64,000 bases of DNA from a virus (taxonomy: Duplodnaviria > Caudoviricetes): positions 1 to 64,000 of IMG/VR virus record IMGVR_UViG_3300021254_000033. The stretch is one strand, 5' to 3'. The translations under genes were made by a program, and so were the position numbers. The notes beneath the pieces were generated by a model. The model made no database searches. It had not been told where the DNA came from and was given only the letters and a program-made list of their open reading frames with translations. This document shows, piece after piece, positions 1 through 44,677 of the stretch. Positions within the stretch are counted from its first letter, which is position 1, and every line of letters starts with the position of its first letter.

Positions 1-6
1 CTATAA

Positions 7-369
7 CTAACCCGCGGTGTATCCCTTCTGGGTTCCCTTCTTCGGAACCTTCACGTCCTGCACACAAGCCCAGCCCTTCGCTACTGCCTGTCTCAGGAGA
101 GCACTCGCAGCCTGTACCTTAACTTCGGCGCCTTCCAGTTCGGTCAGCTCGGCCGCAATGACGGTAGCAGTCTTCGGTTCTGCGGTCAGCATATCGGCTA
201 CCTGGCGAATCCGCGGTTCCTTCTCCTTAGCCTTGATAGCTGCCTTCTCTTTTCTCTTCTCATTCGTCGCGTCCATCTGCATCAGCTGTCTTTCAGCGTA
301 TTCTCTCATTTCGTTGGTGATGGTTTCTTCGTTGATGATGGCGTTGTAGAATTCTCTCATAGTCTTCAT
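7..369 (-). CDS. Small protein, N-terminal helical/coiled region plus C-terminal winged-HTH-like domain; paralog of 4399..4743
   Basis: RBS AGAAAGAGG upstream; shares REFY.AI.N, MDA.NE.RK.K and VK(V/I)PK.G motifs with 4399..4743. Confidence 0.85.
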   Translation of the reverse strand: MKTMREFYNAIINEETITNEMREYAERQLMQMDATNEKRKEKAAIKAKEKEPRIRQVADMLTAEPKTATVIAAELTELEGAEVKVQAASALLRQAVAKGWACVQDVKVPKKGTQKGYTAG

Positions 370-455
370 ATTGTTCCTCTTTCTCCGACAGTGAAGCCGT
401 CGGCGCTACTTTTTTACTTGAGAGAGTCAGTATCTCTCTCTCACTTTCTATATAT

Positions 456-484
456 AGTATACTAAAGATTTAATGAAAAATAAA
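456..484 (-). promoter_or_regulatory. Probable sigmaA promoter (weak -35)
   Basis: -10 TATACT followed by ATATATAGAAA as in other promoters of this phage; -35 only TTTATT. Confidence 0.5.
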
Positions 485-786
485 ATTTTGGAGCTGTTTT
501 TTAGAATTTGATTTTCGGAAAGTTTTGCAGCTGCGGGAAGGAAAAATTTGGGAATTCTGGGAAACGCAGCTGCAGCTGTTTTTTTGACAAAAATAAAAAT
601 TTGCAGCCGCTCAAGATTTGCAGCTGCTACGAAAATTTGTAGCTGTTTTAAAATTTGATTTCTGGTAAATTTTGGGCGCCCGGGCACTTCGTGCACGACC
701 ATGATCTATGATCTAGGAAGATTTCGTGGAAAGAAATTCCTGGAAAATTCTGGTTGGAATAAAATTTGAAAAATGGGAAAATTTGG
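482..786. repeat. Degenerate direct repeats AAAATTT(T)GCAGCTG in a non-coding gap
   Basis: Copies near 482, 519, 597, 613, 632; GCAGCTGCAGCTG at 566; further AAAATTTG units to 786. Confidence 0.7.
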
Positions 787-822
787 CGGCCCGGGCAAAG
801 TTAGTTTTGGGCAACACTAAGT

Positions 823-853
823 AAAAAAAAGAAGACGATTATTAATCGTCTTC
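823..853 (-). terminator. Intrinsic terminator
   Basis: GAAGACGATT-3-AATCGTCTTC stem, T8 tail on minus strand. Confidence 0.85.
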
Positions 854-997
854 CCATTCGTCGAAGTTTGGGTCTTCCCATGGATAACTGTCTTCATCCA
901 CTCCCAGACCGCACCAGTAACGACAATCATCGCCACCGATAGCATTATATGGACATTCGCCGTAATCACATGGAGTATCTTTCTTACCATACATCAT
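842..997 (-). CDS. 51 aa Cys-rich acidic peptide (MMYGKKDTPCDYGECPYNAIGGDDCRYWCGLG...), below the ORF-track cutoff
   Basis: Manual translation; start overlaps the end of 984..1139; stop lies in the terminator. Confidence 0.7.
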   Translation of the reverse strand: MMYGKKDTPCDYGECPYNAIGGDDCRYWCGLGVDEDSYPWEDPNFDEWEDD

Positions 998-1139
998 CTT
1001 CATCTTCCTCTCTTTCTACACTATAGTAATAATAATCTGTGCATTCATCTTCGGGGTCGCCAATTACACATTCATAAGTTACGTCTACGCAGTAAGGACA
1101 TTCTATATCTGCGGTGGGACAGTAGTATGTTTTTCTCAT
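984..1139 (-). CDS. 51 aa Cys-rich acidic peptide (MRKTYYCPTADIECPYCVDVTYECVIGDPEDEC...)
   Basis: Manual translation; RBS AAGGAAAGGAG and consensus promoter directly upstream. Confidence 0.8.
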   Translation of the reverse strand: MRKTYYCPTADIECPYCVDVTYECVIGDPEDECTDYYYYSVEREEDEDDVW

Positions 1140-1172
1140 TTGAACTATCTCCTTTCCTTATCTTGTATACAT

Positions 1173-1201
1173 AGTATAACACAAAACATTATGATTGTCA
1201 A
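1173..1201 (-). promoter_or_regulatory. sigmaA promoter
   Basis: TTGACA-17-TATACT with extended TG. Confidence 0.9.
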
Positions 1202-1262
1202 CCCCTTTTAAAAATTTTTTTTTCGCGCCCGGGTGGCGGTTAGCCTCGACTAACTCTCGTTC

Positions 1263-1284
1263 AAAAAAAAGAGGGTCACCCCTC
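1263..1284 (-). terminator. Intrinsic terminator
   Basis: GAGGG-GTGA-CCCTC plus T8. Confidence 0.8.
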
Positions 1285-1635
1285 TCTTTCTGCCTTGGCT
1301 TTTGCTTTGGCTTCCCGCATTTTACGGTCACGCTCCTGCTTCTTCGCCTTGGCTTCGGCGTTGGCTTTCGCCTTTTCCTCTTTCGCTTTCAGTTTGAGGG
1401 CGTAGTCCTCAGCCATAGCGTAACCATCATAGGGGTCGCCATCACGAGAACCGATAGGCATCTTGAAGGTGAGGACGAGGAAATCTTCTTCTCCATCCGC
1501 ACGTACTACGGGAATAGCATATTCGTTGGAGCCTACCAACAGAACTTCTTCCCCTCTTTCCTCAAGGAAGTTGCCGATAATCAGCATGAATTGGGAACGC
1601 ATATTATCTCTTGCCTGTTTTGTGGATTTTGCCAT
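1276..1635 (-). CDS. Hypothetical protein with charged C-terminal tail; paralog of 3066..3422
   Basis: Shared K.P.GSRDG(D/E)PYDGY.MAE(D/E)Y motif; RBS AAGGAAAGGAG. Confidence 0.9.
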   Translation of the reverse strand: MAKSTKQARDNMRSQFMLIIGNFLEERGEEVLLVGSNEYAIPVVRADGEEDFLVLTFKMPIGSRDGDPYDGYAMAEDYALKLKAKEEKAKANAEAKAKKQERDRKMREAKAKAKAEREG

Positions 1636-1668
1636 AGTGTTTATCTCCTTTCCTTATCTTGTATACAC

Positions 1669-1697
1669 AGTATAACATAGTATTATAAAAAAGTCAA
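1669..1697 (-). promoter_or_regulatory. sigmaA promoter
   Basis: TTGACT-17-TATACT; 36 bp around -10/RBS nearly identical to the 1173 promoter. Confidence 0.9.
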
Positions 1698-1799
1698 CCC
1701 TTTTTCCGAAAAAAGTTTAAGTATTTTTTCTGCATATATGTGATCTATGATCGTAGACGGCGGCCCGGGCGCCACCTACGAAGAAAGTCGCATATGGGT

Positions 1800-2444
1800 T
1801 TATACCCATAAACGACCATCAACTTCTTCGTTATTCTCAAAACAAAAACGCATGATTTCCTTTTCAATCAGAACATCTTCCAGTCCTTTGTGTTCTTCAA
1901 CAAAATTATTATCGCCAGAAATGAATCTGTAAAGAACTTCTGCGGTGTACTTCCGACAGTTTCGGGAAGTTAAATAGTTATTCTCATGACAGAACTTTCC
2001 ATACTCATCATTTTTTTTCAAAACTTTTCTTGCCATCTTCAGAGTATCCCACCATTCAACTCCATAGGGGAGGAAGAAACGATATTTTGAAGAGGTCAAA
2101 AAGCGTTGAGTAAGATTCAAAGAGTGATAATCAAATTTTGCATTATGAGCAAAAACTTTTTTGATATTGTACTGTTTACAAATATCATAGATGATAAAGC
2201 GAATTGTCTTAAATCTCCGAAGCAAGCGTTTTCCCTCTTTGATTTCTTCCCAATACTGAGGAATTTTTTCAGAGTAGTAGGCGCTACTCATCAGCTCCTT
2301 ATCTAAAAATACGTCAGCCACAACGTAGCTATGACTTTCATAGACGTTAGCGTTTTTGTCAATAACTGCAAAACCGATGTCATAACAAATAGGGTCATCA
2401 AGAGAATTAGTTGTTTCAGTGTCAATGATTAAGTATTTTTCCAT
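1800..2444 (-). CDS. DEDDh 3'-5' exonuclease family protein
   Basis: Motifs IIDTETT, AHNAKFD, WDTL, HKGLEDV. Confidence 0.9.
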   Translation of the reverse strand: MEKYLIIDTETTNSLDDPICYDIGFAVIDKNANVYESHSYVVADVFLDKELMSSAYYSEKIPQYWEEIKEGKRLLRRFKTIRFIIYDICKQYNIKKVFAHNAKFDYHSLNLTQRFLTSSKYRFFLPYGVEWWDTLKMARKVLKKNDEYGKFCHENNYLTSRNCRKYTAEVLYRFISGDNNFVEEHKGLEDVLIEKEIMRFCFENNEEVDGRLWV

Positions 2445-2477
2445 TTTTTCGTTTTCCTTTCTTTATCTTATGTATAC

Positions 2478-2506
2478 ATTATAATATATAGAAAGAGAAA
2501 AGTCAA
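2478..2506 (-). promoter_or_regulatory. sigmaA promoter
   Basis: TTGACT-17-TATAAT. Confidence 0.9.
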
Positions 2507-2568
2507 CCCCTTTTTTCAAGTATTTAAAAAAAATATATGCGACCCATCCCGCACATCGGCGCCCGGGC

Positions 2569-2592
2569 AAAAGGTTGCCTAATCAGACAACC
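2569..2592 (-). terminator. Intrinsic terminator
   Basis: GGTTGTCT-GATT-AGGCAACC (one G:U) plus TTTT. Confidence 0.7.
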
Positions 2593-2758
2593 AATCAACT
2601 CCATCATATTTATCTATTACTTCTTCATCCATAAGTGCAGTGCAGTAAAAGTCAAAAGGACAACTTGAACACGCATTCCATTCATCATTTTCATGACACG
2701 CCTCTTTTATTAGTTTCATTCCCTGTATCATTTTTTCTTGCCAAGTCTTTTTAAACAT
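2579..2758 (-). CDS. 59 aa Cys-cluster protein (C-x8-C-x2-CPF-x3-C)
   Basis: Manual translation MFKKTWQEKMIQGMKLIKEACHENDEWNACSSCPFDFYCTALM...; RBS GGAGAAAG. Confidence 0.75.
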   Translation of the reverse strand: MFKKTWQEKMIQGMKLIKEACHENDEWNACSSCPFDFYCTALMDEEVIDKYDGVDWLSD

Positions 2759-2786
2759 CTTTCTTTCTCCTTTTTATTGTTTTACT

Positions 2787-2951
2787 TTATAAAATCTTAA
2801 TAAGAATATAATACATTACCAGTATCTCAAACCATCCGCATAAAATAAACCAACGACCAATTCGTTCAAAAAAATTACAGTTTTGATACACATACTCTTT
2901 TCCGTAATTATGTATATCCATGAAATATAGAATAATGGTTAACAAGAACAT
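2787..2951 (-). CDS. 54 aa hydrophobic, probably membrane peptide (start reassigned to MFLLTII)
   Basis: RBS AAAGGAG before ATG at 2951; the track's 3008 start lies inside the promoter. Confidence 0.7.
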   Translation of the reverse strand: MFLLTIILYFMDIHNYGKEYVYQNCNFFERIGRWFILCGWFEILVMYYILIKIL

Positions 2952-2979
2952 TTTTTTTCTCCTTTCTTTTTCTATATAT

Positions 2980-3008
2980 AATATACCACATTTAATTGTC
3001 CTTGTCAA
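2980..3008 (-). promoter_or_regulatory. sigmaA promoter
   Basis: TTGACA-17-TATATT, extended TG. Confidence 0.85.
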
Positions 3009-3055
3009 CCCCTTTTAAAAAAATTTTCTGGCGCCCGGTCCGCCCAATAAATGGA

Positions 3056-3080
3056 AAACGAGAGATTAATTCTCTCGTTT
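3056..3080 (-). terminator. Hairpin/terminator overlapping stop codon
   Basis: AAACGAGAGA-5-TCTCTCGTTT. Confidence 0.65.
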
Positions 3081-3422
3081 CTTTTTCATTTCCTGTTTTT
3101 TTTCTCTAATTTTTTTATCCCTTTCAACCTTTTTTCTTTTTGCCTCTTCTTTCTCCTTTCTCTTTTCCTCTTTTGTTTTTAACTTAATCTGATATTCTTC
3201 TGCCATAGAATATCCATCGTAAGGTTCGCCATCTCTTGAACCTGTTGGAACCTTTACAACAATCTGAATAAACTTTTCGTTCTGTTCAGAGTCAACACAT
3301 GGAATCGCAATCTCGTTAGTGCCTGTGCGAAGAACCTCGTCGTCATTTTCTAACAGTTCGATAATTTTAGTCAGATACTCTTCACGAAGAGTATCATTTA
3401 ATTTCTTCTGAGAAACTGCCAT
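3066..3422 (-). CDS. Hypothetical protein; paralog of 1276..1635
   Basis: VKVPTGSRDGEPYDGYSMAEEY motif; K/E-rich tail. Confidence 0.9.
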   Translation of the reverse strand: MAVSQKKLNDTLREEYLTKIIELLENDDEVLRTGTNEIAIPCVDSEQNEKFIQIVVKVPTGSRDGEPYDGYSMAEEYQIKLKTKEEKRKEKEEAKRKKVERDKKIREKKQEMKKKREN

Positions 3423-3436
3423 TTTAACACTCCTTT

Positions 3437-3685
3437 CTAACGTTCGTTTAACTGTTCATAAAGTTTGGAAATAGTTGTTAAAAGTACCTGTTTTCTTTTG
3501 GTTTCAAAAGCGATACCATTTTCAATCCATTCTTCAATGGGTTCTCCATTTCTTTGACATCTTTTGTATTCTGTTTTATACCATTTCAAATCTTCTTCTG
3601 TATCATTCAGATATGATTTTACATAATCATAAATACAAGATAAAGTTTCTGCCTCAATAATTACGTTATCAAATTCAGTGACCAT
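3437..3685 (-). CDS. Hypothetical protein (82 aa)
   Basis: RBS AAGGAAGGAG; promoter upstream. Confidence 0.8.
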   Translation of the reverse strand: MVTEFDNVIIEAETLSCIYDYVKSYLNDTEEDLKWYKTEYKRCQRNGEPIEEWIENGIAFETKRKQVLLTTISKLYEQLNER

Positions 3686-3714
3686 TTTTTTCTCCTTCCT
3701 TATTTTCTATATAA

Positions 3715-3743
3715 ATTGTACCACAGAATAAAAGGAATGTCAA
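3715..3743 (-). promoter_or_regulatory. sigmaA promoter
   Basis: TTGACA-17-TACAAT, extended TG. Confidence 0.85.
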
Positions 3744-3898
3744 CTATTTTTTTTATTTTTTCTAAAAAAATTATAACAAAAATTTTTTAAAAAATCAAAT
3801 AATTTTTTCTTTAATACTTTACTATAGTGAAGTGCGCGCCCGGGCAGTTAGCAAGAGACAACTCTCTTGCTAACCGTCTTAGAAGGAAAGGAAATTAT

Positions 3899-4225
3899 TT
3901 AATTTTCTTCAATGTTTTCTATATCATAAATATCATCAAAACATTCTCTACTTGGTGGCGTCATTCCTGACCAGAATTTTCTTTCTGCTTCCTCTTTTGT
4001 TTTTGCTTTAATTTTACAATAACCAGAGAAATCAATATACCATTCTTTTTCCTCTAAATAATCATACTCTTTTAATGCGTCGAGATTGTTTACAAGTGCA
4101 TATTCTACAATATCTTTTGCTGTAGTCCACGCAATATAATTTTCTTGACTACAATTATCTATTCTTGCATTTAAGATATGAATTAAAGTGTCAACAACTT
4201 CGGAAGAGATTCTTGTATACTTCAT
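3899..4225 (-). CDS. Hypothetical protein (start probably MKYTR)
   Basis: RBS AAAGGA; promoter upstream. Confidence 0.8.
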   Translation of the reverse strand: MKYTRISSEVVDTLIHILNARIDNCSQENYIAWTTAKDIVEYALVNNLDALKEYDYLEEKEWYIDFSGYCKIKAKTKEEAERKFWSGMTPPSRECFDDIYDIENIEEN

Positions 4226-4263
4226 AATTATCATTCCTTTCTTTTTCCTCTTTGATTATCTAT

Positions 4264-4292
4264 AGTATACCACAGTAAAATCATTTTGTCAA
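4264..4292 (-). promoter_or_regulatory. sigmaA promoter
   Basis: TTGACA-17-TATACT, extended TG. Confidence 0.9.
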
Positions 4293-4356
4293 TAGAAAAA
4301 ATAATGTATTTTATTTCCATTGCGTCCGGGCGGGTTAGCGACGGCTAACTCAACCT

Positions 4357-4387
4357 AAAAAAAGAAAGGACGCATATAGCGTCCTTT
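4357..4387 (-). terminator. Intrinsic terminator
   Basis: AAAGGACGC-5-GCGTCCTTT plus T-tract. Confidence 0.85.
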
Positions 4388-4398
4388 TTCCCGAAAGA

Positions 4399-4743
4399 CT
4401 ACACAATCTTGTAAGCCTTTCTCTTTCCGACTTTCGGAATCTTCACTTCTTCAACTGTCAGTTTTCCTTCAGCAACCAACTGACGAGCAAGAGCACCTGC
4501 CTTGTTGTGAGTAATATCGAGAGCCAAACCGAGGTCAGTTTCCGTCATAGCGTTACCTACTTCAGTGAGGTGAGTGAGGATTGCTTCCTTGATAGGAGCG
4601 TTTTCGATAGCAGTCTTGGAAGGCTTAGCCTTTCTTGCTTCGTTGCGAGCATCCATCTTAGCGATTGCTTCAGCTGCGAAAGCCATAACTTCTTCGTTCA
4701 TTGTGCCATTAACGATTGCGGTGTAGAATTCTCTCTGTAACAT
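4399..4743 (-). CDS. Winged-HTH-like DNA-binding protein; paralog of 7..369
   Basis: IL..L.E.G..MT..DL...L......L..EGKL wHTH pattern; RBS AAAGGAAAAGG. Confidence 0.85.
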   Translation of the reverse strand: MLQREFYTAIVNGTMNEEVMAFAAEAIAKMDARNEARKAKPSKTAIENAPIKEAILTHLTEVGNAMTETDLGLALDITHNKAGALARQLVAEGKLTVEEVKIPKVGKRKAYKIV

Positions 4744-4787
4744 AGTTCTTACCTTTTCCTTTCTGTTTTTCTTTATCTTACATACTT

Positions 4788-4816
4788 ATTATAACATGGA
4801 TTCGGAAGTTTGTCAA
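4788..4816 (-). promoter_or_regulatory. sigmaA promoter
   Basis: TTGACA-17-TATAAT, extended TG. Confidence 0.9.
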
Positions 4817-4882
4817 CCCTTTTTTTAATTTTTTTATTTTTTTCTTTCGGCTGACGTTTTCCTTTCCTTACCTTGTATATAT

Positions 4883-4911
4883 AATATACCACAATTTTAT
4901 AAATTCGTCAA
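4883..4911 (-). promoter_or_regulatory. Second tandem sigmaA promoter with its own RBS but no ORF
   Basis: TTGACG-17-TATATT followed by AAGGAAAGGAAAACG with no start codon. Confidence 0.75.
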
Positions 4912-5026
4912 CCCTTTTTCAGAAAAAAATTTAAGTATTTTTTTTACGCATATGTGATCTATAAATGTAGAACGCGCCGCCCGGGCACAACGGTTAGTAT
5001 AAACTAACCGCCAACCTTTTACTAAA

Positions 5027-5452
5027 TTAAAATGTTTTTAATACTTCAAGAATATTGTTTACATCATACGCACCCTCACCCCATTCTTTTCTATTCTTTT
5101 CTTCGTCATCAAAAAGGATTCCTTTTCTTCCGATATGTTTCGGAGTGCCATATTCAATAATATCAATGTGGTCAAATCTAACACTTCTTAAATGAATCTG
5201 AAGCCATTCAATTTTTGCTTTTGCAACAGCTCTCTGATATTGAGGTGTAGCCCCTTTACTAAGCCAGCTGACAATACCTAATTTATATCCTTCTCTCTGT
5301 AATCTATTCAGGATTCTTGCGAGAGCTGCTAATCTCAGGAGCGGAGCCGCTTCTGCATACGGTGTAGCATCTTCAGCCATCAATTTTTCCAACCAGTTCG
5401 GAACCCCATATAAATCTGCGATTGTGCCATCCATATCAAACCAAATTGTCAT
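5027..5452 (-). CDS. HAD-family 5'(3')-deoxyribonucleotidase-like protein
   Basis: FDMDGTIADLY motif I, LFDD motif IV. Confidence 0.85.
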   Translation of the reverse strand: MTIWFDMDGTIADLYGVPNWLEKLMAEDATPYAEAAPLLRLAALARILNRLQREGYKLGIVSWLSKGATPQYQRAVAKAKIEWLQIHLRSVRFDHIDIIEYGTPKHIGRKGILFDDEEKNRKEWGEGAYDVNNILEVLKTF

Positions 5453-5482
5453 TTCCTTTATCTCCTTTCCTTTTCTATATAT

Positions 5483-5510
5483 ATTATACCATTACTAAAA
5501 GAAAAGTCAA
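5483..5510 (-). promoter_or_regulatory. sigmaA promoter
   Basis: TTGACT-16-TATAAT. Confidence 0.8.
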
Positions 5511-5609
5511 TACTTTTTTAGAAAGTTTTTCAGAAAATTTTTCTGACTATTCTATGATCGTCGACCACTGCGCCCGGGTGGAACGGTTAGCAAAGCCTAA
5601 CTTTTGTAT

Positions 5610-5637
5610 AAAAAAAATAGACGGCGCGCCGTCTATT
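5610..5637 (-). terminator. Intrinsic terminator
   Basis: AATAGACGG-CGCG-CCGTCTATT plus T8. Confidence 0.85.
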
Positions 5638-5791
5638 CCTCTTCGTCAGATAAAATCCAGTATCTGACATAATATCCATGTCTACCATTAATGAATTTTT
5701 CTGCACCCTCTTTCGTATTAAAATGTTTTATAACAGTTTGTCCTCTCATGACATCATAACCCTTGGCGATATTTTCCAGAATTTTTTCCAT
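5633..5791 (-). CDS. 52 aa hypothetical protein (MEKILENIAKGYDVMRG...)
   Basis: Manual translation; RBS GGAGG. Confidence 0.75.
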   Translation of the reverse strand: MEKILENIAKGYDVMRGQTVIKHFNTKEGAEKFINGRHGYYVRYWILSDEEE

Positions 5792-5803
5792 TATTTTTTC
5801 CTC

Positions 5804-5950
5804 CTACTGAAAAAGTCTAATAAAGATTTCAAAAAAGTTTCCTGTCCAGTACACTGGATTATCAGAAAGATTTTTGGAACAGATTTCCATCCAACTAATT
5901 CCCACCCATACTAAAAAGGCTGTACTTGTTATTGTTAAAAAATTCCGCAT
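5804..5950 (-). CDS. 48 aa membrane peptide (MRNFLTITSTAFLVWVGISWMEI...)
   Basis: Manual translation; hydrophobic N-terminal helix; RBS AGGGGG. Confidence 0.7.
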   Translation of the reverse strand: MRNFLTITSTAFLVWVGISWMEICSKNLSDNPVYWTGNFFEIFIRLFQ

Positions 5951-5955
5951 TATTT

Positions 5956-6126
5956 TTACCCCCTAACATTTTCGAAAATAATTCCGTTATTGATTTCTTT
6001 TTGGGCAATCTGTGCGACTTTATTTTCGCTATATGCACCATAGAACCAAAATTCTCCAGCAACTTCTCTCGCTACGATGAACCTATATTCTCTTGCATAT
6101 TCGGGAAGATTATTGATTTTCTTCAT
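5956..6126 (-). CDS. 56 aa hypothetical protein (MKKINNLPEYAREYRFIVAREVAGEFWFYGAY...)
   Basis: Manual translation; RBS AAGGAAAGG; promoter upstream. Confidence 0.8.
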   Translation of the reverse strand: MKKINNLPEYAREYRFIVAREVAGEFWFYGAYSENKVAQIAQKEINNGIIFENVRG

Positions 6127-6162
6127 TGTTCTGTTCCTTGCCTTTCCTTATTTTCTATAATT

Positions 6163-6191
6163 ATTTTACCACTTTCTTTTCGGGAAGTCAA
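6163..6191 (-). promoter_or_regulatory. sigmaA promoter
   Basis: TTGACT-17-TAAAAT, extended TG. Confidence 0.85.
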
Positions 6192-6334
6192 CCTTTTTTC
6201 TAAAGTTTTTCGGGAAAATTTTCGAAAATTTTTTCGAGTATCGGGATCCGACCGAAATATTTTCTGCGACGCCCGGGCAAAAGGAAGTTATTCCCATAAC
6301 TTTTTTGAGAACCTTCCTTTGACTTATTAATTTT

Positions 6335-6568
6335 CTAAAACATATCTTGGTCAACTACGAAATAATATTCTACCTCGGGAGCAACACAACCATTAAACCA
6401 TTTATTGGGTTTTTCTTTTGTGAGTCTTTCGGCTTCCTTTTCTGCGTCGACTCTGTTCTTTCCTGTGTAGTATGCGAGAAATTCGTCACATCTTCTTTCG
6501 TATTTTGTACCCTCGTTATATACTGTCGGAGTCTTTGCCTTATAACAAATTGCTAACATTTTTTCCAA
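6335..6568 (-). CDS. Hypothetical protein (77 aa)
   Basis: RBS GAAAGGAG. Confidence 0.8.
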   Translation of the reverse strand: MEKMLAICYKAKTPTVYNEGTKYERRCDEFLAYYTGKNRVDAEKEAERLTKEKPNKWFNGCVAPEVEYYFVVDQDMF

Positions 6569-6614
6569 CTCCTTTCTTCTCCTTTTTATTTTTCTTCCTC
6601 TTCTTTCTATAATT

Positions 6615-6643
6615 ATTATACTATAACTTTATATAAAATGCAA
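6615..6643 (-). promoter_or_regulatory. sigmaA promoter
   Basis: TTGCAT-17-TATAAT. Confidence 0.8.
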
Positions 6644-6728
6644 GTATTTTTTTATAATAAAAAGAAAATTATTTAATCAAATTAAAATTAGTCAATGCTA
6701 ACTGCCCGGGCAAAAGCATAAACGAAAC

Positions 6729-6752
6729 GAAGAGAGACTTTAGTCTCTCTTC
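6729..6752 (-). terminator. Hairpin/terminator at stop codon
   Basis: GAAGAGAGACT/AGTCTCTCTTC inverted repeat. Confidence 0.7.
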
Positions 6753-7207
6753 ATCATTCTCATCAGTGTCTTTTCATTTGTAAAGGTTGCTGCAGTGTAC
6801 TTAATCTGATATGCAATTCCGTCCACTGTGATATCTCCGTCTTCGGTGAAGGGGACGTTATCCTTTTCCCATTCCTGTCCAAAGTATTCAGTTACCAGTT
6901 TTTCGAAGACTTCACCTTTATTATATTTTGTATTCTTTACTAATTCTTCAAAGAATCTTGCGGAGCAGAGGATTGTGTATCCGTTCTGCTTTAACAGTTC
7001 TCTTTGTGCCTTGTTCGGTTTGAATCTGAGACTGTAGCCCTGACCTCTGCCTGCCTTATCCAGCTTGCAAACGTAGGGGAGAACGCTGTCATCAGCCTTC
7101 ACGAGGTAGATATTATCATTCTCTTCGAAGCCGAAGAGGTATTCGCCTGTGTATGCGAGTTCCATATATGTTTCAATCATCTTCTTGAACAGTTCTAAAT
7201 TCTTCAT
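6740..7207 (-). CDS. Putative PD-(D/E)XK-like nuclease-fold protein
   Basis: C-terminal NKGEVFE...GDITVDGIAYQIK pattern (E...D...QxK). Confidence 0.6.
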   Translation of the reverse strand: MKNLELFKKMIETYMELAYTGEYLFGFEENDNIYLVKADDSVLPYVCKLDKAGRGQGYSLRFKPNKAQRELLKQNGYTILCSARFFEELVKNTKYNKGEVFEKLVTEYFGQEWEKDNVPFTEDGDITVDGIAYQIKYTAATFTNEKTLMRMMKRD

Positions 7208-7237
7208 TTTTGTTCTCCTTTCCTTCTTTCTGTAATC

Positions 7238-7266
7238 ATTGTATCATATCTGCCGGTCGCTGTCAA
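7238..7266 (-). promoter_or_regulatory. sigmaA promoter
   Basis: TTGACA-17-TACAAT, extended TG. Confidence 0.9.
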
Positions 7267-7430
7267 TACTTTTTTTAAAATTTTTTTCAGCTTCAGCTCC
7301 CTCATATTTCCAGTAAATATTTTCCTGCTTTGCAGCCGGGTGATTAGTTTCCATGATCTTCCAGCTCCAGCTCCTGTGTATTTCCAGATTCTTCCAAAGG
7401 ATCTGAAGGCATGGGAATCAGGGTAGGGGA

Positions 7431-7928
7431 TTACTCCCCTGCCCTTTCGTCTAACCATGTCAGCATCTTTCCAGATGTTTTCTTAAACTTGATTTTGTAA
7501 CAGGTCTTTCCGGATTCTTTATTCCATCCAGCCCACTCTGTTACAAACTCTCTGAATTCTGTAGCGTTCATCTCATAGATACTTGCTACGCCGTCGATGA
7601 TTGCCACATATGCCCATCTTGTAGAATGTACTCTGTCGAAGTACTCAGCCAACAGGCTTTCCATGTTTTCAGCGGTCGGCTCATCTCTGTACAGACAAGC
7701 AAGCGACGCACCGGAGCTTTTAACACTTATTCCCAGCTCTTCAATATCCGAACCCTTATCAAATGCGATGTGGTCCGTGTCGAATTTGAAACCGTAGCCA
7801 TAGAATTCCTGAGCGTAGCATTCCGCAAGATTGCCACCGTTTCCGATAGCTTTTCCTATTTGATACTTATTCCCCTTACCCTCAAGACGGGTGAACGTGG
7901 CGCCTGTAGTGTGATAAAATTTTAACAT
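7431..7928 (-). CDS. Putative PD-(D/E)XK-like protein, apparent circular permutant of 6740..7207
   Basis: N-terminal NGGNLAE...SDIEELGISVK pattern; C-terminal YKIKFK matches YSLRFK of the neighbour's N-terminus. Confidence 0.6.
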   Translation of the reverse strand: MLKFYHTTGATFTRLEGKGNKYQIGKAIGNGGNLAECYAQEFYGYGFKFDTDHIAFDKGSDIEELGISVKSSGASLACLYRDEPTAENMESLLAEYFDRVHSTRWAYVAIIDGVASIYEMNATEFREFVTEWAGWNKESGKTCYKIKFKKTSGKMLTWLDERAGE

Positions 7929-7958
7929 TGTTTTTTCTCCTTTCCTACTTCTCCATCT

Positions 7959-7988
7959 ATTCTATCACACTCAACAAGAAAAGTACAA
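7959..7988 (-). promoter_or_regulatory. Probable sigmaA promoter
   Basis: TTGTAC-18-TAGAAT. Confidence 0.55.
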
Positions 7989-8220
7989 TCAAATTTTCTT
8001 ATGACGTCATAAAAATCTTTGATGGGGGATCATCAAAAGAAAACCTACTAAAAAAATAAAACATACCACCCTAAAATTATTTTCGCCTTTTTCTACAAAT
8101 GATCACCCTTACATATGTATTACTTTTTCAATATATATGTAAGATACATATATGCGACGATGGGGGTACATTTTAGGTTTTTCGCATGGTAAATCCTGGA
8201 AATCGTACGGGCCTGGAATT

Positions 8221-8262
8221 TTCGTACTCTGAAATAATTTTTTCGTACTCTGAAATAATTTT
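8221..8262. repeat. Perfect 21 bp tandem repeat x2 (TTCGTACTCTGAAATAATTTT)
   Basis: Units 8221-8241 and 8242-8262 are identical. Confidence 0.95.
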
Positions 8263-8289
8263 TCAACCTCTCTACCCCTCCAGGAAAAT

Positions 8290-8318
8290 TTGACACCCTT
8301 CCCAATCTGTGCTATACT
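8290..8318 (+). promoter_or_regulatory. sigmaA promoter, divergent from the cassette array
   Basis: TTGACA-17-TATACT, extended TG. Confidence 0.9.
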
Positions 8319-8356
8319 ATTATTAGATGCGGGAAATATACGAAAAGGAATGAAAA

Positions 8357-9739
8357 ATGAGAAATAGACTAAAACTCGACTGGGCGCTCACTACATCATC
8401 TGAACGCTCATCTTTCATTAACAACTACATACAAAGCGAAACTTTCTCCAAAATAAAGCCGACTTCAGATGAACTAGAAACAATGGCTAATTACGTACTC
8501 TGGGGAAAAGACGAAGATGGACTCAACTCCGATCAGCGCAAAGAAATTGAGATGCCCCGCAAATACTCCACCTGGGCCGCTCAAAACATTGACTCCCTAG
8601 ACGAAAAAATTGATTCGCCATCTTTCTCCGAAGGAACGCTCCAAAAGCTCGGCACTACCCCCCTAACCAAAAAACCAAAAGAAAGTTTCTCCAGAGAAGA
8701 AACCAGAAACACTGCGCCACCCTCTACTCTACCTCTCTTCGAGGAACTTTGGGAGAGAATCGACTACACCGAACTCCTCATCAACCTCTACGAAGAAAAA
8801 ACCGGAAAGCGCAAAAAACCTCCTCGTGACGAACTTCTCCAACGCTTTTCAGAAGAAAAACTCCAAAAAATTCAAGAGAAAGCCACAACCCTTTCTCAGT
8901 ATAAGTATTTGAAGTTGAAGCATTTACTTGTGGAGTTGCGCCGGGAGCAGTATACGTTGAAGGATTCGTATGCGGAGGGAATTTGTAGGAGGAGTTATGG
9001 AGAGGTCAATACGGGAGTTGAACTGGTTGAGGAAGTGGCAGACGTTTTTAGGAAGTTGGACGTTTTTGAGGAAGAGGTTCCCGTGCTTCCGTTGGGAGTT
9101 ATGGAGAAGAAAGGAAGTGGTTTTTGGAGAGAAAGAGAAGATATTATTCCGGAGAACTTTGGGGAAGAAGAGATTTTGGAATTTTCTAAAGTTTTTTGGG
9201 AAAAAGAAGACATTAGAGAAAGAGTAGAAGGCGCGAGCCCGTCATCTGAAGTGAAGTATTTTGATTTTAGAGATTTGGAGATGGTTTATCAGTTGCTTTT
9301 GGAGTATCAAGAGATGTCGAGAGATAGTCAGGTTTGGTTGAGGAATACTTCGAAATTGATTCAGACGCTTTTTTATTATGTGGAAGAGGCGCATTTGACT
9401 GAAATTCAGGAGAAGATACTGCGGCTGAAGATGCGGCGGGTCAAAAATCAGGATATTGCTAATCAGATTAATGGGGAATATGGGAAGAGTTATACTGCTA
9501 ACTATATTTCGACTATTTTTAGGCAGAAGATTATTCCTGAGATTAATGGCGCGGCCGCACTCCATGCGCAACTTGTTAGTAGCCTTCCTTTTGAGGAAGA
9601 GTTTAAGCGATGTACAAGATGCGGCCGAGTGCTTTTGCGCGATCCTGTTAATTTTGTAAGGAAGAAGAGAGCCAAAGATGGCTTGTCTAGCAGATGTAAG
9701 AAGTGTGATAAAGAGGAAAGAGAGAGGAATAAGAGATGA
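8357..9739 (+). CDS. Putative transcription regulator: sigma-region-4/HTH-like motif plus C-terminal Cys4 zinc ribbon
   Basis: LTEIQEKILRLKMRRVKNQDIA...YISTI; CTRC...CKKC; first gene of the morphogenesis strand. Confidence 0.6.
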   Translation: MRNRLKLDWALTTSSERSSFINNYIQSETFSKIKPTSDELETMANYVLWGKDEDGLNSDQRKEIEMPRKYSTWAAQNIDSLDEKIDSPSFSEGTLQKLGTTPLTKKPKESFSREETRNTAPPSTLPLFEELWERIDYTELLINLYEEKTGKRKKPPRDELLQRFSEEKLQKIQEKATTLSQYKYLKLKHLLVELRREQYTLKDSYAEGICRRSYGEVNTGVELVEEVADVFRKLDVFEEEVPVLPLGVMEKKGSGFWREREDIIPENFGEEEILEFSKVFWEKEDIRERVEGASPSSEVKYFDFRDLEMVYQLLLEYQEMSRDSQVWLRNTSKLIQTLFYYVEEAHLTEIQEKILRLKMRRVKNQDIANQINGEYGKSYTANYISTIFRQKIIPEINGAAALHAQLVSSLPFEEEFKRCTRCGRVLLRDPVNFVRKKRAKDGLSSRCKKCDKEERERNKR

Positions 9740-15615: not shown

Positions 15616-16209
15616 ATGGCTGGTAATATTACAAGAATGGTCATCGACGGTTATGGCCAGCTCGAACTAAATCAGGTTGCCTTTCGTAGAGATGGTAGAA
15701 TCGAAGCTCAGTGTAAACTAGATGAAACTGACTTCGCCTCCATTCCTTGCGAAAATGGCATGATTCTTGCCGTGGATAATGTTAACAAAGTTGTTAAATT
15801 ACCTGCGTCTGGTACCGAGGACTATCCACTAGCTCTCGTGTACACAACCGAACATATGTATGATGAAAGAACCAATGCTCTAAAGGATTTCAAGCTAACC
15901 ATTAATGATGGTTTCTATCCAAGACTAGGGTATTTATCTATTGGCGATAAGTTTATGACAAACACAATCGCTTATGATGATTCCGAATTTACTGCTACAC
16001 AGACTAAAACTGTAGAAGAAGTTATTGCTGAAGCTTATGAAGACATCACTACAACTCCTCTCTATGGTTCTGTAGACGCATCCGGCGTTATCGTAATTTC
16101 TGCTACTAAACCACAATCTGGTGTTACCCTACTTGCTATCAATGGCCCTGGCGTTCCAACCATGCCTGATGGACAGTTTGGTATGAAGTTCCAGGTAATC
16201 GGACTATAA
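15616..16209 (+). CDS. Capsid decoration/minor head protein
   Basis: Position before MCP; highly expressed codon usage; RBS GGAGG. Confidence 0.6.
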   Translation: MAGNITRMVIDGYGQLELNQVAFRRDGRIEAQCKLDETDFASIPCENGMILAVDNVNKVVKLPASGTEDYPLALVYTTEHMYDERTNALKDFKLTINDGFYPRLGYLSIGDKFMTNTIAYDDSEFTATQTKTVEEVIAEAYEDITTTPLYGSVDASGVIVISATKPQSGVTLLAINGPGVPTMPDGQFGMKFQVIGL

Positions 16210-41762: not shown

Positions 41763-42665
41763 TTATAAAATACCAGTGCTTCCAAAACCACCACCGCGGT
41801 CTTCTCCAATTTCACCTACTTTTTCTACTCTAAAGAAATCAATTTTAGGAACTTCAGAAAGAACTAATTGACAGAACTTTTCGCCTTTATTAATTGAATA
41901 AGATTGACCATATTCAAGGCTTTTGATGCGTAGTTCCTCTGTTCTTCCACCGTTTGGATTATTAATTGGTTCATATTGAATATCCTTAATTGGAGGTTCT
42001 ACATTTTCTACAATTACTCCAATTTCATCCCGGTAGCCTGCATCAATTGTTCCTGGTGTATTAGCAACACGTAATTTTGTTTTTAGACAGCGGCCGCTCT
42101 TTGGGCGAACCTGAATTTCATATCCTGGTGGGATAGCTACTTTAATACCTGTTGGAATTAGTTTTGTTTCTCCAGGTTTAATGATATAATCATCTAAAGC
42201 ATAAACATCTAATCCACTATCTGACACATGAGCATACTGTGGAATTCTTGCATTTTCGTGACATAATTCTATTGGAATTCGAATAATTCTTTTTGAAATA
42301 CCTTCTGTTTCATTAATGGCATTAGACATAGAATTAATAATTTGAATAAAGAAGTCTTTTTTAATATTTGATAATTCTTCTAAGTTGTTAATGGCTTCTA
42401 TGGCTTCATTGAAAGCTTCATTTATATCTTCGGAAGTATATCCATCTTTATTTATACTCTGAACTAATGCCACTCTTGCATTAGCATTATTAATTGACAT
42501 TGCAAAACTTTCTAATAACCCTGGCGCAATTAATTCAAATTGATCATCTGGTAACTCAAAAATAGCATTTAACATTTCTGCAGTGTCTTCATTAGTAGCA
42601 AGAGCTTCTAATGTGGATGCAATTTCTTCTACTGTTTCTTTCGTAATTTTTTCATCATTCTTCAT
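41763..42665 (-). CDS. dut: Trimeric dUTPase with long N-terminal extension
   Basis: SGLDV, RPKSG, GTIDAGYRDEI, RGGGFGSTG. Confidence 0.92.
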   Translation of the reverse strand: MKNDEKITKETVEEIASTLEALATNEDTAEMLNAIFELPDDQFELIAPGLLESFAMSINNANARVALVQSINKDGYTSEDINEAFNEAIEAINNLEELSNIKKDFFIQIINSMSNAINETEGISKRIIRIPIELCHENARIPQYAHVSDSGLDVYALDDYIIKPGETKLIPTGIKVAIPPGYEIQVRPKSGRCLKTKLRVANTPGTIDAGYRDEIGVIVENVEPPIKDIQYEPINNPNGGRTEELRIKSLEYGQSYSINKGEKFCQLVLSEVPKIDFFRVEKVGEIGEDRGGGFGSTGIL

Positions 42666-42876
42666 CCCAAATCCCTCCAAATTGCTGCACGAGTTTTACA
42701 ATATATGCTTCATCGATAATTTCACCTTTTGCTTTTTTAGTTTTATAAGTGTATCCCGCCGCAGTTAAAATAAAACCATCATTTTCTGCTTTATTTTTGT
42801 AGTCTTCAATAAGTTTTTTTGCTTCAGGTTCACTGTCTGCCCTAAATTCTAAGGTTTGTTTTAAGATTCGTGTCAT
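42655..42876 (-). CDS. Hypothetical protein (73 aa)
   Basis: Operonic overlap on both sides. Confidence 0.8.
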   Translation of the reverse strand: MTRILKQTLEFRADSEPEAKKLIEDYKNKAENDGFILTAAGYTYKTKKAKGEIIDEAYIVKLVQQFGGIWDEE

Positions 42877-43508
42877 TTTTCTCCTCCATTAAAATATGCT
42901 GTAACTATTTCTTTAAATAATGGTAACTCTAATAATTCAACACAAAATTCTCTCCATTCAGGAAGTCTGTGATTATATCTTTGTATATATATATTTAACA
43001 AACATCTATAATTAGTTGTTAATCTCGCTGTTAATTGAAACCCCGCAGGAGTATTGTATAATATTTCTAAATACAATTTATCCAACATTTTTTTTCTTTC
43101 TTCCATAACTTTTTGAGAGTCTTTTTTAAGAGAAGAAAGCCGATTATACTCATTTACTTTTTCTTGTACTATATCAATAATTCTTGAATCAACATATTCA
43201 TTACACTGTTCTTTTAAATTAAACCTAGTAATTCTATGCATTGTACTTTGACTTGTAACAAATTCTAAAAAACGGTACCTCTCTGCCTCAACCCAAGCTT
43301 TATTTGAAAAGGTAACATCAAAATTAACTCTTACTCCTGTAAGCCATTGAGCATGAGACCCATTTCCATAAGAAGCTTTTACTAAGTTTAATCCTCTTTT
43401 TATATCCTTATCATTACTTAATCTTCGTTCAGTTTCGGTTCTCATAGCATATCCACTTGCTATCAAACTTTCTTCTAAATCATAAACTTTTACATTACTC
43501 AAAATCAT
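42873..43508 (-). CDS. Divergent ThyX-like (FAD-dependent thymidylate synthase fold) protein
   Basis: ERYR...SQSTMH and NYR.L.NIY.QR.NHRLPEW resemble ThyX motifs; flanked by dut and a deaminase. Confidence 0.5.
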   Translation of the reverse strand: MILSNVKVYDLEESLIASGYAMRTETERRLSNDKDIKRGLNLVKASYGNGSHAQWLTGVRVNFDVTFSNKAWVEAERYRFLEFVTSQSTMHRITRFNLKEQCNEYVDSRIIDIVQEKVNEYNRLSSLKKDSQKVMEERKKMLDKLYLEILYNTPAGFQLTARLTTNYRCLLNIYIQRYNHRLPEWREFCVELLELPLFKEIVTAYFNGGEK

Positions 43509-43923
43509 TTAGAATTTTCTCCTTCACATAATCTCCATATTGGTTAATATAAAAAATTTCTTTTATTCCTAAATCTCTAATTAATTTACTACAGGCCGCG
43601 CAAGGACGACTACATCCTTTTTGTCCATTTTTTAATTCTCTATAAACATAAATAGAAACTCTGCTCCAGTCTATTTCTTTGCCAATTAATGGAGATAATG
43701 CATCTACTTCTGCGTGTTGTCTTGCTATAGAATGTTCATAATCTGTCATATCTCTATAGAAGTTATATTTGTGCTGCAGTGGGCGAGTTTTATTTGAGTT
43801 AAAACCAGTTGATAAAATATGATTTTTTTCTACTACAACTGCGCCCACTTTAGTTCTATGATAGTCACCTAAATAGCTTATTTCTTTTGCTATATTAAAA
43901 AACCTTTTCTCTTTTTTAGTCAT
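43495..43923 (-). CDS. dCMP/cytidine deaminase family protein (start MTKKEK)
   Basis: HAE...PCAAC zinc motif. Confidence 0.85.
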   Translation of the reverse strand: MTKKEKRFFNIAKEISYLGDYHRTKVGAVVVEKNHILSTGFNSNKTRPLQHKYNFYRDMTDYEHSIARQHAEVDALSPLIGKEIDWSRVSIYVYRELKNGQKGCSRPCAACSKLIRDLGIKEIFYINQYGDYVKEKILNDFE

Positions 43924-43957
43924 TTTCTTCCTTTCTACCATATCATTTTCTATATAT

Positions 43958-43986
43958 AGTATACTACAAAAGAAAAAAATATTCAA
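43958..43986 (-). promoter_or_regulatory. sigmaA promoter
   Basis: TTGAAT-17-TATACT followed by ATATATAGAAA. Confidence 0.75.
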
Positions 43987-43989
43987 GTT

Positions 43990-44175
43990 TTAATCGGGAA
44001 TTTTATGATATAAACCACAATGACACCATTCATCTGAGCCTTCTAAAAAATTTAAACAGATACATTTTGTTCTTTCATTTTTTTGCAGTTGACAACAACA
44101 ATATCCATCGTTTTCTTTTATTGCTTCTAAAATTTCTTTTTGTTTTTCTTTATCTGGTGTAATTGAGATTTTCAT
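43990..44175 (-). CDS. Ferredoxin-thioredoxin reductase catalytic-subunit-like protein
   Basis: GYCCC...CIC...CHCGLY corresponds to CPC/CPC/CHC. Confidence 0.7.
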   Translation of the reverse strand: MKISITPDKEKQKEILEAIKENDGYCCCQLQKNERTKCICLNFLEGSDEWCHCGLYHKIPD

Positions 44176-44677
44176 TAGTTAGTCTCCTTGCGTATTGATT
44201 ACTACTAGACAATTCAACTCCTAAAATTTCATCATAATGAGGAGAATCATTGGGAATATATCTACCATATTTAACAATGATATTAGGAAAGTTAAATAAA
44301 TTTTTATATAACGTAGATAAACCATCCTCAGTAGTATTTTCTAATTCTTCTTTAGTATATCCTGTGTAAATAACTATATCATCATTACATTTATACACTC
44401 TACGTAACGTATCTATAAAAGTAATTAACTCAAATTTTGAGTCAAAAGGTTCTAATCCGCCGCAAACTACTGCATTAGTTAACGGATTATTAATATATCG
44501 TTTACATATTTTTTCTACATCCATATCTAAAATAGGAGTACTCACTAACGAAGAGTTTTGACAAATCTTTTCTCCAGCTTCATTGTCACATTTAAATGAG
44601 CAATATGGAAAAATTAAAAACATTGAGATTTTTTTGTAATTACAAATATCTTCATCAATTATTCCACGTATTTTCAT
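44150..44677 (-). CDS. nrdG: Anaerobic RNR activating enzyme
   Basis: CSFKC...C cluster motif, GGLEPF; linked to nrdD. Confidence 0.85.
   Translation of the reverse strand: MKIRGIIDEDICNYKKISMFLIFPYCSFKCDNEAGEKICQNSSLVSTPILDMDVEKICKRYINNPLTNAVVCGGLEPFDSKFELITFIDTLRRVYKCNDDIVIYTGYTKEELENTTEDGLSTLYKNLFNFPNIIVKYGRYIPNDSPHYDEILGVELSSSNQYARRLTNENLNYTR

Follow-up and report, generated by a model that had tools for sequence, protein, structure and literature searches.

The window analysed here comprises the first 64 kb (64,000 nt) of the 78,585-bp viral record IMGVR_UViG_3300021254_000033, for which CheckV estimates a completeness of 67%. Its first 7990 nt hold an array of about 19 small open reading frames (ORFs), all on the minus strand. 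They form some 12 units that are autonomous, since each has its own sigma-A promoter with extended -10, a strong ribosome-binding site (RBS), one to three small ORFs and, in most units, an intrinsic terminator at the end. The units are separated by an 8-bp palindrome made entirely of G and C and centred on CCGG, which we call the core (GCCCGGGC in the phage of the window). An initial annotation of this DNA had described self-contained promoter-gene-terminator cassettes with a conserved site in every gap from 369 to 6740 and none at the junctions inside operons, and all the three statements were borne out by the counts given below and by the 13 promoters, scoring at least 10/12, that we located in the array.

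Precisely, GCCCGGGC is present in eight exact copies in the window, all of them between 678 and 6711, against 0.04 expected from shuffled sequences. A search with GCCCGGGCG allowing one mismatch returned 12 sites, all in 677-6711, and one chance hit at 16145; the scan of all 78,585 bases gave no core site beyond the array's 12. Reading the minus strand from 6740 down to 369, these 12 sites occupy 11 of the 11 gaps between transcription units (6740/6568, 6335/6126, 5633/5452, 5027/4743, 4399/4234, 3899/3685, 3066/3008, 2579/2444, 1800/1635, 1276/1139 and 817/369, the last of which holds two), whereas none of the five within-operon junctions has one (984/997, 2758/2787, 3422/3437, 5791/5804, 5950/5956). 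The gap 7431/7207 contains a promoter and no core. Among 566 distinct CCCGGG sites of related loci the flanking G and C are kept and nothing outside them is, so that the conserved site consists of eight bases.

Along the direction of transcription the stop codon is followed by the intrinsic terminator, often by a GTTAG-N6-CTAAC box, by 1-5 bases and by the core; downstream from the core there are a lineage-specific block (ATCATAGATCACATATGC in three spacers of the window), an A/T-rich stretch, the -35 and -10 elements and the RBS. Three spacers of the window can be aligned from the core through the promoter and the RBS, but not on the terminator side. Positions 1646-1770 and 4860-4986 share a 127-bp block with 82% identity, and the likeness ends at the outer edges of both cores. 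In a relative with 98% identity to the window (L001) the array stops about 750 bp past window position 1, with no further cores there.

We compared 93 sequences all against all and considered an internal end of a high-scoring segment pair (HSP) to be at a core if it was no more than 10 bp away from it. This was the case for 48 of the 269 internal ends, against 5.6 expected, and the enrichment was still present at 50 bp (69 against 26). We then considered as a true discontinuity joint any position in which two HSPs abutted in one genome, while in the other one they were separated by over 100 bp or had changed order. Fourteen of the 33 joints so defined lay within 12 bp of a core, and the overlap of the two HSPs, 8-10 bp long, was the core itself. 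By the same measure, 5 of 40 joints were at a core in a set of loci anchored on the exonuclease gene of the array, and 15 of 70 in lineages with alternative cores, giving 34 of 143 for the three sets pooled. The zone of 12 bp on either side of the cores accounts for 2.1% of the total DNA, and for 5.3% when intergenic DNA alone is taken.

Unrelated flanks meet at the 8 bp also in raw nucleotide views. In two relatives (L075 and L062) a 402-bp unit, which comprises a terminator, a small gene, an RBS and a promoter, is flanked by GCCCGGGA on one side and by GCCCGGGC on the other, and a third one (L022) has a single GCCCGGGC at that place; in three others (L060, L067 and L046) there are reordered blocks that begin at cores. 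At least 15 of the events look independent. Because 34 of the 143 joints fall in a core zone of about 2% of the DNA, and clean one-cassette insertions are among them, the idea of a cassette joint is well supported: the core is the preferred crossover and boundary point, and it is there that related phages have gained, lost, exchanged and reordered whole units. The initial annotation had asked whether breakpoints of gene gain and loss map to the core/GTTAG sites; in relatives they do so at the core, as for the 402-bp single-gene cassette, far more often than by chance, and the GTTAG box is not where crossovers fall.

The arrays are widespread. The composite pattern of box and core matches 88 IMG/VR viral stretches, many of them in multiple copies, and a search anchored on the DEDDh exonuclease of the array, not on the core, gave more than 541 contigs encoding it. 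In a complete 239.6-kb phage about 52 cores are all found within 115.2-153.2 kb, and in another whole contig about 20 are confined to 14.2-26.4 kb. The form of the core throughout the clade is SSCCGGSS (S being G or C), with an invariant CCGG and only rarely CC in the outer positions. In some relatives GGCCGGCC replaces GCCCGGGC in the same structural position and beside the same flanking boxes (21 copies in L268, and 28 further stretches), while other relatives use CGCCGGCG or the hybrids CGCCGGCC and GCCCGGCC. One type of core dominates within each genome. Ten out of ten GGCCGGCG cores of L313 have the same polarity relative to transcription, and the homologous spacers of L334 carry CGCCGGCG; thus, the outer bases of the core track the genome and not the neighbouring cassette or flank. 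Half-sites that travelled with their flanks would have pointed to an exchange in the central CCGG; they follow the genome, and this does not separate cut-and-ligate from other mechanisms. Because all the cores of a genome share their outer bases, and these change together between lineages, we infer that the core is probably read by a trans-acting protein with a lineage-specific specificity.

Two other 8-mers resembling targets of rare cutters, GCGGCCGC and GGCGCGCC, are enriched in some loci, but we rejected them as joints because they are mostly in coding DNA. In three complete contigs devoid of cores (G008, G009 and G010, containing L276, L277 and L288) the counts of SSCCGGSS against those of a reversed-pattern control were 0/1, 4/23 and 0/8, respectively, so that phages in which SSCCGGSS does not serve as a joint seem to avoid it.

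The best candidates for reading the core are the products of the first two genes of the array, C4 and C3. They have a motif of 55 residues in common, N-x-G-x3-E...D...(S/Q)-x-K (hhalign probability 96%), in which E, D and K are invariant or almost invariant in both of them (E36, D61 and K70 in C4). E...D...QxK is the active-site pattern of HinP1I. The AlphaFold models are confident, with a predicted local distance difference test score (pLDDT) of 92 for C4 and 96 for C3. In an exhaustive structural comparison (VIA-align) the top matches of the C4 model were, with few exceptions, type II restriction enzymes and PD-(D/E)xK nucleases related to them, with Z scores of 5.9 for NhoI and HhaI, 5.7 for I-Ssp6803I, 5.5 for HinP1I, 4.7 for MutH and 4.6 for MspI. 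A protein-language-model search with C4 pointed independently to the clusters of PDDEXK_16, DpnI, PvuII, MamI and ThaI (0.91-0.94). PDB sequence profiles gave nothing.

We also considered the co-occurrence of these genes and the cores in 79 exonuclease-anchored loci, 50 of which are core-dense and 15 core-poor. C4 is present in 40 of the 50 core-dense loci against 3 of the 15 core-poor ones (odds ratio 16), and C3 in 30 against 3; for eight other early families in the same 79 loci there was no association with cores. In four of the five core-dense contigs in which C4 seemed to be missing, the gene lies at another place, within the array or next to it. C4 is absent from five core-less contigs, four of which are at least 93% complete, and SSCCGGSS occurs in them 0-4 times in 90-140 kb. 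In the tree of the exonuclease, core-less and core-rich lineages are interleaved. Taken from the motif, the models and these distributions, a role of C4 and C3 as recognisers of the core, which would nick or cut it and so drive the exchange, is plausible and unproven. At the position of C4, L003, whose array is almost core-free, has an ORF of 166 aa that is unrelated to it and carries the classical nuclease motif D...E-V-K (L003:9025-9525, minus strand); no alternative repeated joint was found in L003.

The explanation that we prefer for the whole is a cassette array delimited by cores that are read by a phage protein, with C4 and C3 as the best candidates, and we regard it as evenly poised between right and wrong. 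As to the mechanism, we propose tentatively, and with more doubt than confidence, a natural cassette exchange based on restriction sites. C4, together with its paralogue C3, both encoded at the head of the array, would act as a rare-cutter-like PD-(D/E)xK enzyme and nick or cut the CCGG of the cores, and the broken ends would be repaired by the phage ligase and by RecJ-like, Sak4-like (AAA_24) and RuvC-like functions, so that the joints would fall exactly in the core. Units would in this way be excised, inserted and swapped between co-infecting relatives, the array working as a built-in cassette exchanger, and the co-evolution of enzyme and cores (GCCCGGGC, GGCCGGCC, CGCCGGCG) would divide the phages into compatibility groups.

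Several results weigh against this proposal. About three quarters of all the joints are not at cores. No inverted cassette or joint was seen in the three joint sets, and a symmetric cut-and-ligate reaction would allow inversion. Structurally, the window and its 98% relative differ only by a segment of 515 bp with a gene and a promoter, extra in L001, at 2764-2776; it sits inside the two-gene operon 2579-3008 and is joined via a 13-bp RBS repeat, with no core. The language-model scores and the structural Z scores of C4 are moderate, the latter all below 8; Foldseek returned nothing significant for the C4 model, and for the C3 model neither Foldseek nor VIA-align gave a structural match. Only 3-6 phylogenetically independent contrasts could be drawn between C4 and the cores: about half had the same direction and none the opposite one, and they were not significant. 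As to a methylase that might protect the phage's own sites, the record (67% complete) had no match to the DNA methyltransferase families PF00145 and PF01555. Finally, 8 bp of G/C microhomology and selection for intact units could yield joints at cores without any enzyme.

This last point leads to the main rival, which falls short of even chances and is to be taken seriously. According to it, the joints are passive: the core would be kept for another role (insulator, roadblock or regulatory site to which a protein of host or phage binds, or G/C clamp between AT-rich promoters), the exchange would be a by-product of short homology, and selection would keep intact units. There is a precedent in the promoter-early stem-loop (PeSL) elements of T4-type phages, where exchange is attributed to homologous recombination across a conserved promoter-terminator motif that serves as spacer (Arbiol et al. 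2010, PMC2839356; Comeau et al. 2014, PMC4122927). Other short repeats are used in non-core joints, for example the RBS overlap of 13 bp in the comparison of the window with L001, and in other places overlaps of 3-38 bp, and microhomologies of RBSs and promoters do give occasional joints. Moreover, the phage encodes annealing and recombination functions, and the link between C4 and cores loses significance after phylogenetic correction. However, crossovers are pinned to the 8 bp despite the longer blocks adjoining them (promoter regions with about 80% identity over about 120 bp), whole genomes switch core type together, which requires a recogniser anyway, and the distance from core to -35 in the window varies from 8 to 94 bp, unlike that of a classical operator.

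The GTTAG...CTAAC palindrome adjoins 7 of the 12 cores of the window, five times with N6 and otherwise with spacings of 18 and 12. In the related loci the spacer of the N6 box is fixed at six and the arms are invariant and never covary; the middle six bases are weakly self-complementary, with two pairs at 74/155 and 65/155 against about 50 expected and one pair without excess. In core-rich loci 47 of 100 GTTAG boxes touch a core, and the box is present in core-poor relatives too. One of these (L280, 1200-12650) has 12 GTTAG-N6-CTAAC boxes placed as operators would be, just behind the -10 of its promoters; the same region also carries several perfect Rex-type boxes, TTGTGAATTTTTTCACAA. Other boxes can take its place beside cores: LexA-like CGAAC-N4-GTTCG, TTGTGCAA-type, TTGTTAA...TTAACAA and CodY-like ones. 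Because of the weak stem covariation and of the occurrence over transcription starts, away from cores, we read GTTAG-N6-CTAAC as an operator-like box, separable from the core and predicted to be the site of a regulator; as a structural hairpin or an attC site we rejected it. The CodY-like boxes are weakly enriched in the window (36 against 23 expected at three mismatches), and we did not rely on them.

Site-specific recombination of the integron type, with a recombinase encoded by the host or by the third of the genome that the record lacks, and with cassettes excised as circles and inserted at cores, is improbable. It agrees with joints that are precise and regenerate one core, with single-cassette insertions flanked by two cores and, for the missing enzyme, with a record that is only 67% complete. 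Nevertheless, Phage_integrase (PF00589) and Resolvase (PF00239) had no match in the 78.6-kb record at this completeness, so that the search for a recombinase called for by the initial annotation returned no tyrosine or serine enzyme, and no recombinase family is found among the families common to array-bearing loci. Furthermore, the conserved part is just 8 bp without arm sites, the GTTAG box is separable from it, and every cassette has its own promoter.

A purely regulatory core with no role in rearrangement, the breakpoints being artefacts of a short word that attracts HSP ends, is largely refuted and very improbable. Local alignments do extend into shared words, and some snapping of ends is therefore expected, but the abutting HSP pairs overlap by the core alone, in the partner their other ends are separated by distances of hundreds up to thousands of bases, unrelated flanks meet at the core in the raw sequence, and the enrichment holds at 50 bp. 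Least credible of all is that box and core are a small mobile element of the MITE (miniature inverted-repeat transposable element) or REP (repetitive extragenic palindromic) type spread through phage intergenic regions: copies are many, palindromic and intergenic, but box and core are separable, with 1-5 bp between them and interchangeable box types, there are neither target-site duplications nor a transposase, and hits in bacterial genomes are mostly single chance ones.

The features of the array are collected in Table 1.

Table 1. Cassette genes, promoters, cores and GTTAG-type boxes in the first part of the window; the last column gives the number of box+core loci, among those sharing cassette genes with the window, in which the family is found.
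Feature	Coordinates	Strand	Remarks	Loci
Last cassette gene of the window, 120 aa, family C1	7..369	-	one of two window paralogues	42
Two-gene cassette, Cys-rich small proteins of 51 and 57 aa	817..1139	-		
Cassette, 119-aa protein, family C6	1276..1635	-	Lys/Glu-rich tail	
Cassette, DEDDh 3'-5' exonuclease-like, 214 aa	1800..2444	-	D8/E10, N101/D105, H185/D190 invariant	44
Two-gene cassette, 73 and 59 aa	2579..3008	-		
Two-gene cassette, 82 and 118 aa	3066..3685	-	118-aa protein is a paralogue of 1276-1635 (C6)	
Cassette ORF, 111 aa	3899..4234	-	function not assigned	
Cassette, 114-aa protein, family C1	4399..4743	-	paralogue of 7-369	42 (same family)
Cassette, NT5C-like 5'-deoxyribonucleotidase, 141 aa	5027..5452	-		36
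Three-gene operon, 56, 48 and 52 aa	5633..6126	-	core-free inside	
Cassette ORF, 77 aa	6335..6568	-	function not assigned	
Second array gene, C3, 155 aa	6740..7207	-	N-x-G-x3-E...D...Q-x-K motif as in C4	24
First array gene, C4, 165 aa, putative PD-(D/E)xK restriction-endonuclease-like	7431..7928	-	conserved E36, D61, (S/Q)68-x-K70	20
13 near-consensus sigma-A-type promoters	span 1173..7266	-	score >=10/12, mostly TG-extended -10	
Promoter -35 starts	7266, 6695, 6191, 5510, 4911, 4816, 4292, 3798, 3743, 3008, 2506, 1697, 1201	-		
Core, exact GCCCGGGC	678..685	.		
Core, exact GCCCGGGC	789..796	.	TTAG-N12-CTAA palindrome on terminator side	
Core, one mismatch GCCCGGGT	1227..1234	.		
Core, exact	1763..1770	.	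outer edge of the 127-bp block shared with 4860-4986	
Core, exact	2561..2568	.		
Core, one mismatch GCCCGGTC	3033..3040	.		
Core, exact	3838..3845	.		
Core, one mismatch GTCCGGGC	4324..4331	.		
Core, exact	4979..4986	.		
Core, one mismatch GCCCGGGT	5572..5579	.		
Core, exact	6271..6278	.		
Core, exact	6704..6711	.	GTTAG-type box 6687-6702 on promoter side	
GTTAG-N6-CTAAC box	1239..1254	.		
Long GTTAG...CTAAC palindrome	3847..3874	.	N18 variant	
GTTAG-N6-CTAAC box	4334..4349	.		
GTTAG-N6-CTAAC box	4993..5008	.		
GTTAG-N6-CTAAC box	5586..5601	.		

Pfam gave nothing for most of the cassette proteins. The DEDDh exonuclease-like protein is encoded by the most widespread gene of these arrays and, like the nucleotidase, it belongs to several early genes that are widely conserved, which does not agree with the purely accessory gene content supposed by the initial annotation. 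The last cassette is preceded by a 450-bp non-coding leader (369-817), in which there are two cores, GCAGCTGC(AAA) repeated four or five times and a number of AAATTTTC words, and which looks like an operator-rich head. Between the array and a divergent plus-strand gene (8357-9739) there is a control region with two copies of a tandem repeat of about 24 bp, AAAAATTATTTCAGAGTACGAAAA (8215-8263). The product of that gene, 460 aa long, has a match in phrog_5767, a family of phage 'sigma factors' (E 6e-14); near its C-terminus there is a zinc-ribbon region like that of endonuclease VII, and it may be the switch to middle or late transcription.

As regards the phage itself, the proteins of the record include a tape-measure protein of 2,989 aa, Pol III alpha, a DnaB-like helicase, GyrA, GyrB, UvrD, RNase H, an ATP-dependent ligase, a RecJ-like protein, a RuvC-like nuclease, a protein of the AAA_24 (Sak4) type, NrdD, a dCMP deaminase and a dUTPase-like protein. 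Positions 1-7990 are the early-gene array of a large phage from gut or rumen; a host among low-GC Firmicutes is indicated because the promoters are of the TTGACA-17-TATAAT form with TG extension and the RBS is of the AAGGAAAGGAG type. No integrase was found in the record at its 67% completeness, and the phage is therefore apparently virulent. Megablast of positions 1-8400 against GenBank phages gave no match. In bacterial genomes the composite pattern of box and core gave, besides the chance hits, which were in high-GC genomes, a few Clostridia contigs of metagenome-assembled genomes (Acutalibacteraceae, Oscillospiraceae, Ruthenibacterium and Gemmiger), a hint of a host in the order Oscillospirales.

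Genes of nucleotide metabolism were found in 41763-44677 of the window and in the whole record (a dUTPase/dCTP-deaminase-like protein, a weak ThyX-like one, dCMP deaminase and NrdD/NrdG). Outside the array GATC is strongly avoided (92 sites against 203 expected), and the counts of GGCC and CCGG reach about half of the expectation; together with these genes, the depletion suggests restriction pressure or a modified base. Beyond the window, at 76.6-78.4 kb of the record (L213:14600-16450), there is a cluster of tRNA-like genes with long non-coding segments, and a BspA-type leucine-rich-repeat protein of 514 aa is encoded at L213:3178-4722.

Whether phage mosaicism arises by random illegitimate recombination followed by selection, or by exchange at dedicated boundary sequences, is a long-standing question. 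Hundreds of gut and rumen contigs with arrays of 12 to about 52 units, and one 8-bp word at each boundary, represent a natural data set on this subject, in which crossovers can be read to the base and a candidate enzyme is encoded in the array itself. If the link with the nuclease were true, these arrays would be a new class of viral evolvability device, a natural counterpart of cloning by restriction sites, and the lineage-specific cores would predict which phages trade early anti-host genes.

Among known systems, the stoperators of cluster A mycobacteriophages, asymmetric 13-14-mers distributed over the whole genome and bound by the immunity repressor, resemble the cores in that many copies of one short site lie in intergenic DNA and co-evolve with a binding protein, which in our case would be the predicted recogniser. 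To our knowledge they have not been reported as recombination joints; unlike them, the cores are symmetric, confined to the array and act as joints. The host-takeover module of SPO1, a large virulent Firmicute phage, has many strong early sigma-A promoters, each serving one or a few small genes with terminators, and it is similar to our array in its clustered early promoters, small genes and terminators; we know of no conserved joint sequence or cassette exchange at defined sites described for it.

The free-standing homing endonucleases Seg and Mob of T-even phages recognise one long asymmetric target beside their own gene, and the breaks that they make localise recombination. Together with recombination by restriction and ligation in vivo, they offer a parallel to our proposal, i.e. 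a site-specific phage nuclease that would break intergenic DNA of relatives and localise recombination there. Unlike theirs, the targets here are 12-52 short palindromes, one marking every unit, and the cleavage is predicted.

Integrons, to which the initial annotation had likened the array, also have small gene units that are bounded by a recurring palindromic site and gained or lost there. Their cassettes are promoterless and expressed from Pc, and attC has imperfect inverted repeats, RYYYAAC...GTTRRRY, with the crossover at G/TT. Here, instead, the record had no match to a recombinase of the IntI type, each cassette is served by a promoter and terminator of its own with no common Pc, and the site is an 8-bp duplex palindrome and not a folded one of 57-141 nt. 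The GTTAG-N6-CTAAC box, with its fixed N6 and little covariation, is opposite in polarity to R''/R', and crossovers fall in the CCGG core and not in the box. Membership of the integrons thus fails on the recombinase, on the attC structure and on cassette expression.

The closest precedent is given by the PeSLs of T4-type phages. In both cases a spacer contains a terminator stem-loop together with an early promoter close to the consensus, small variable early ORFs lie on either side of it, and it is at the spacers that related phages differ by insertion, deletion or replacement. Unlike PeSL phages, those described here have Firmicutes hosts and are unrelated to T4. Moreover, their crossover is in a separate 8-bp CCGG palindrome, which is neither promoter nor terminator and has unrelated flanks on both sides, and this palindrome switches type by lineage and co-occurs with a restriction-endonuclease-like gene.

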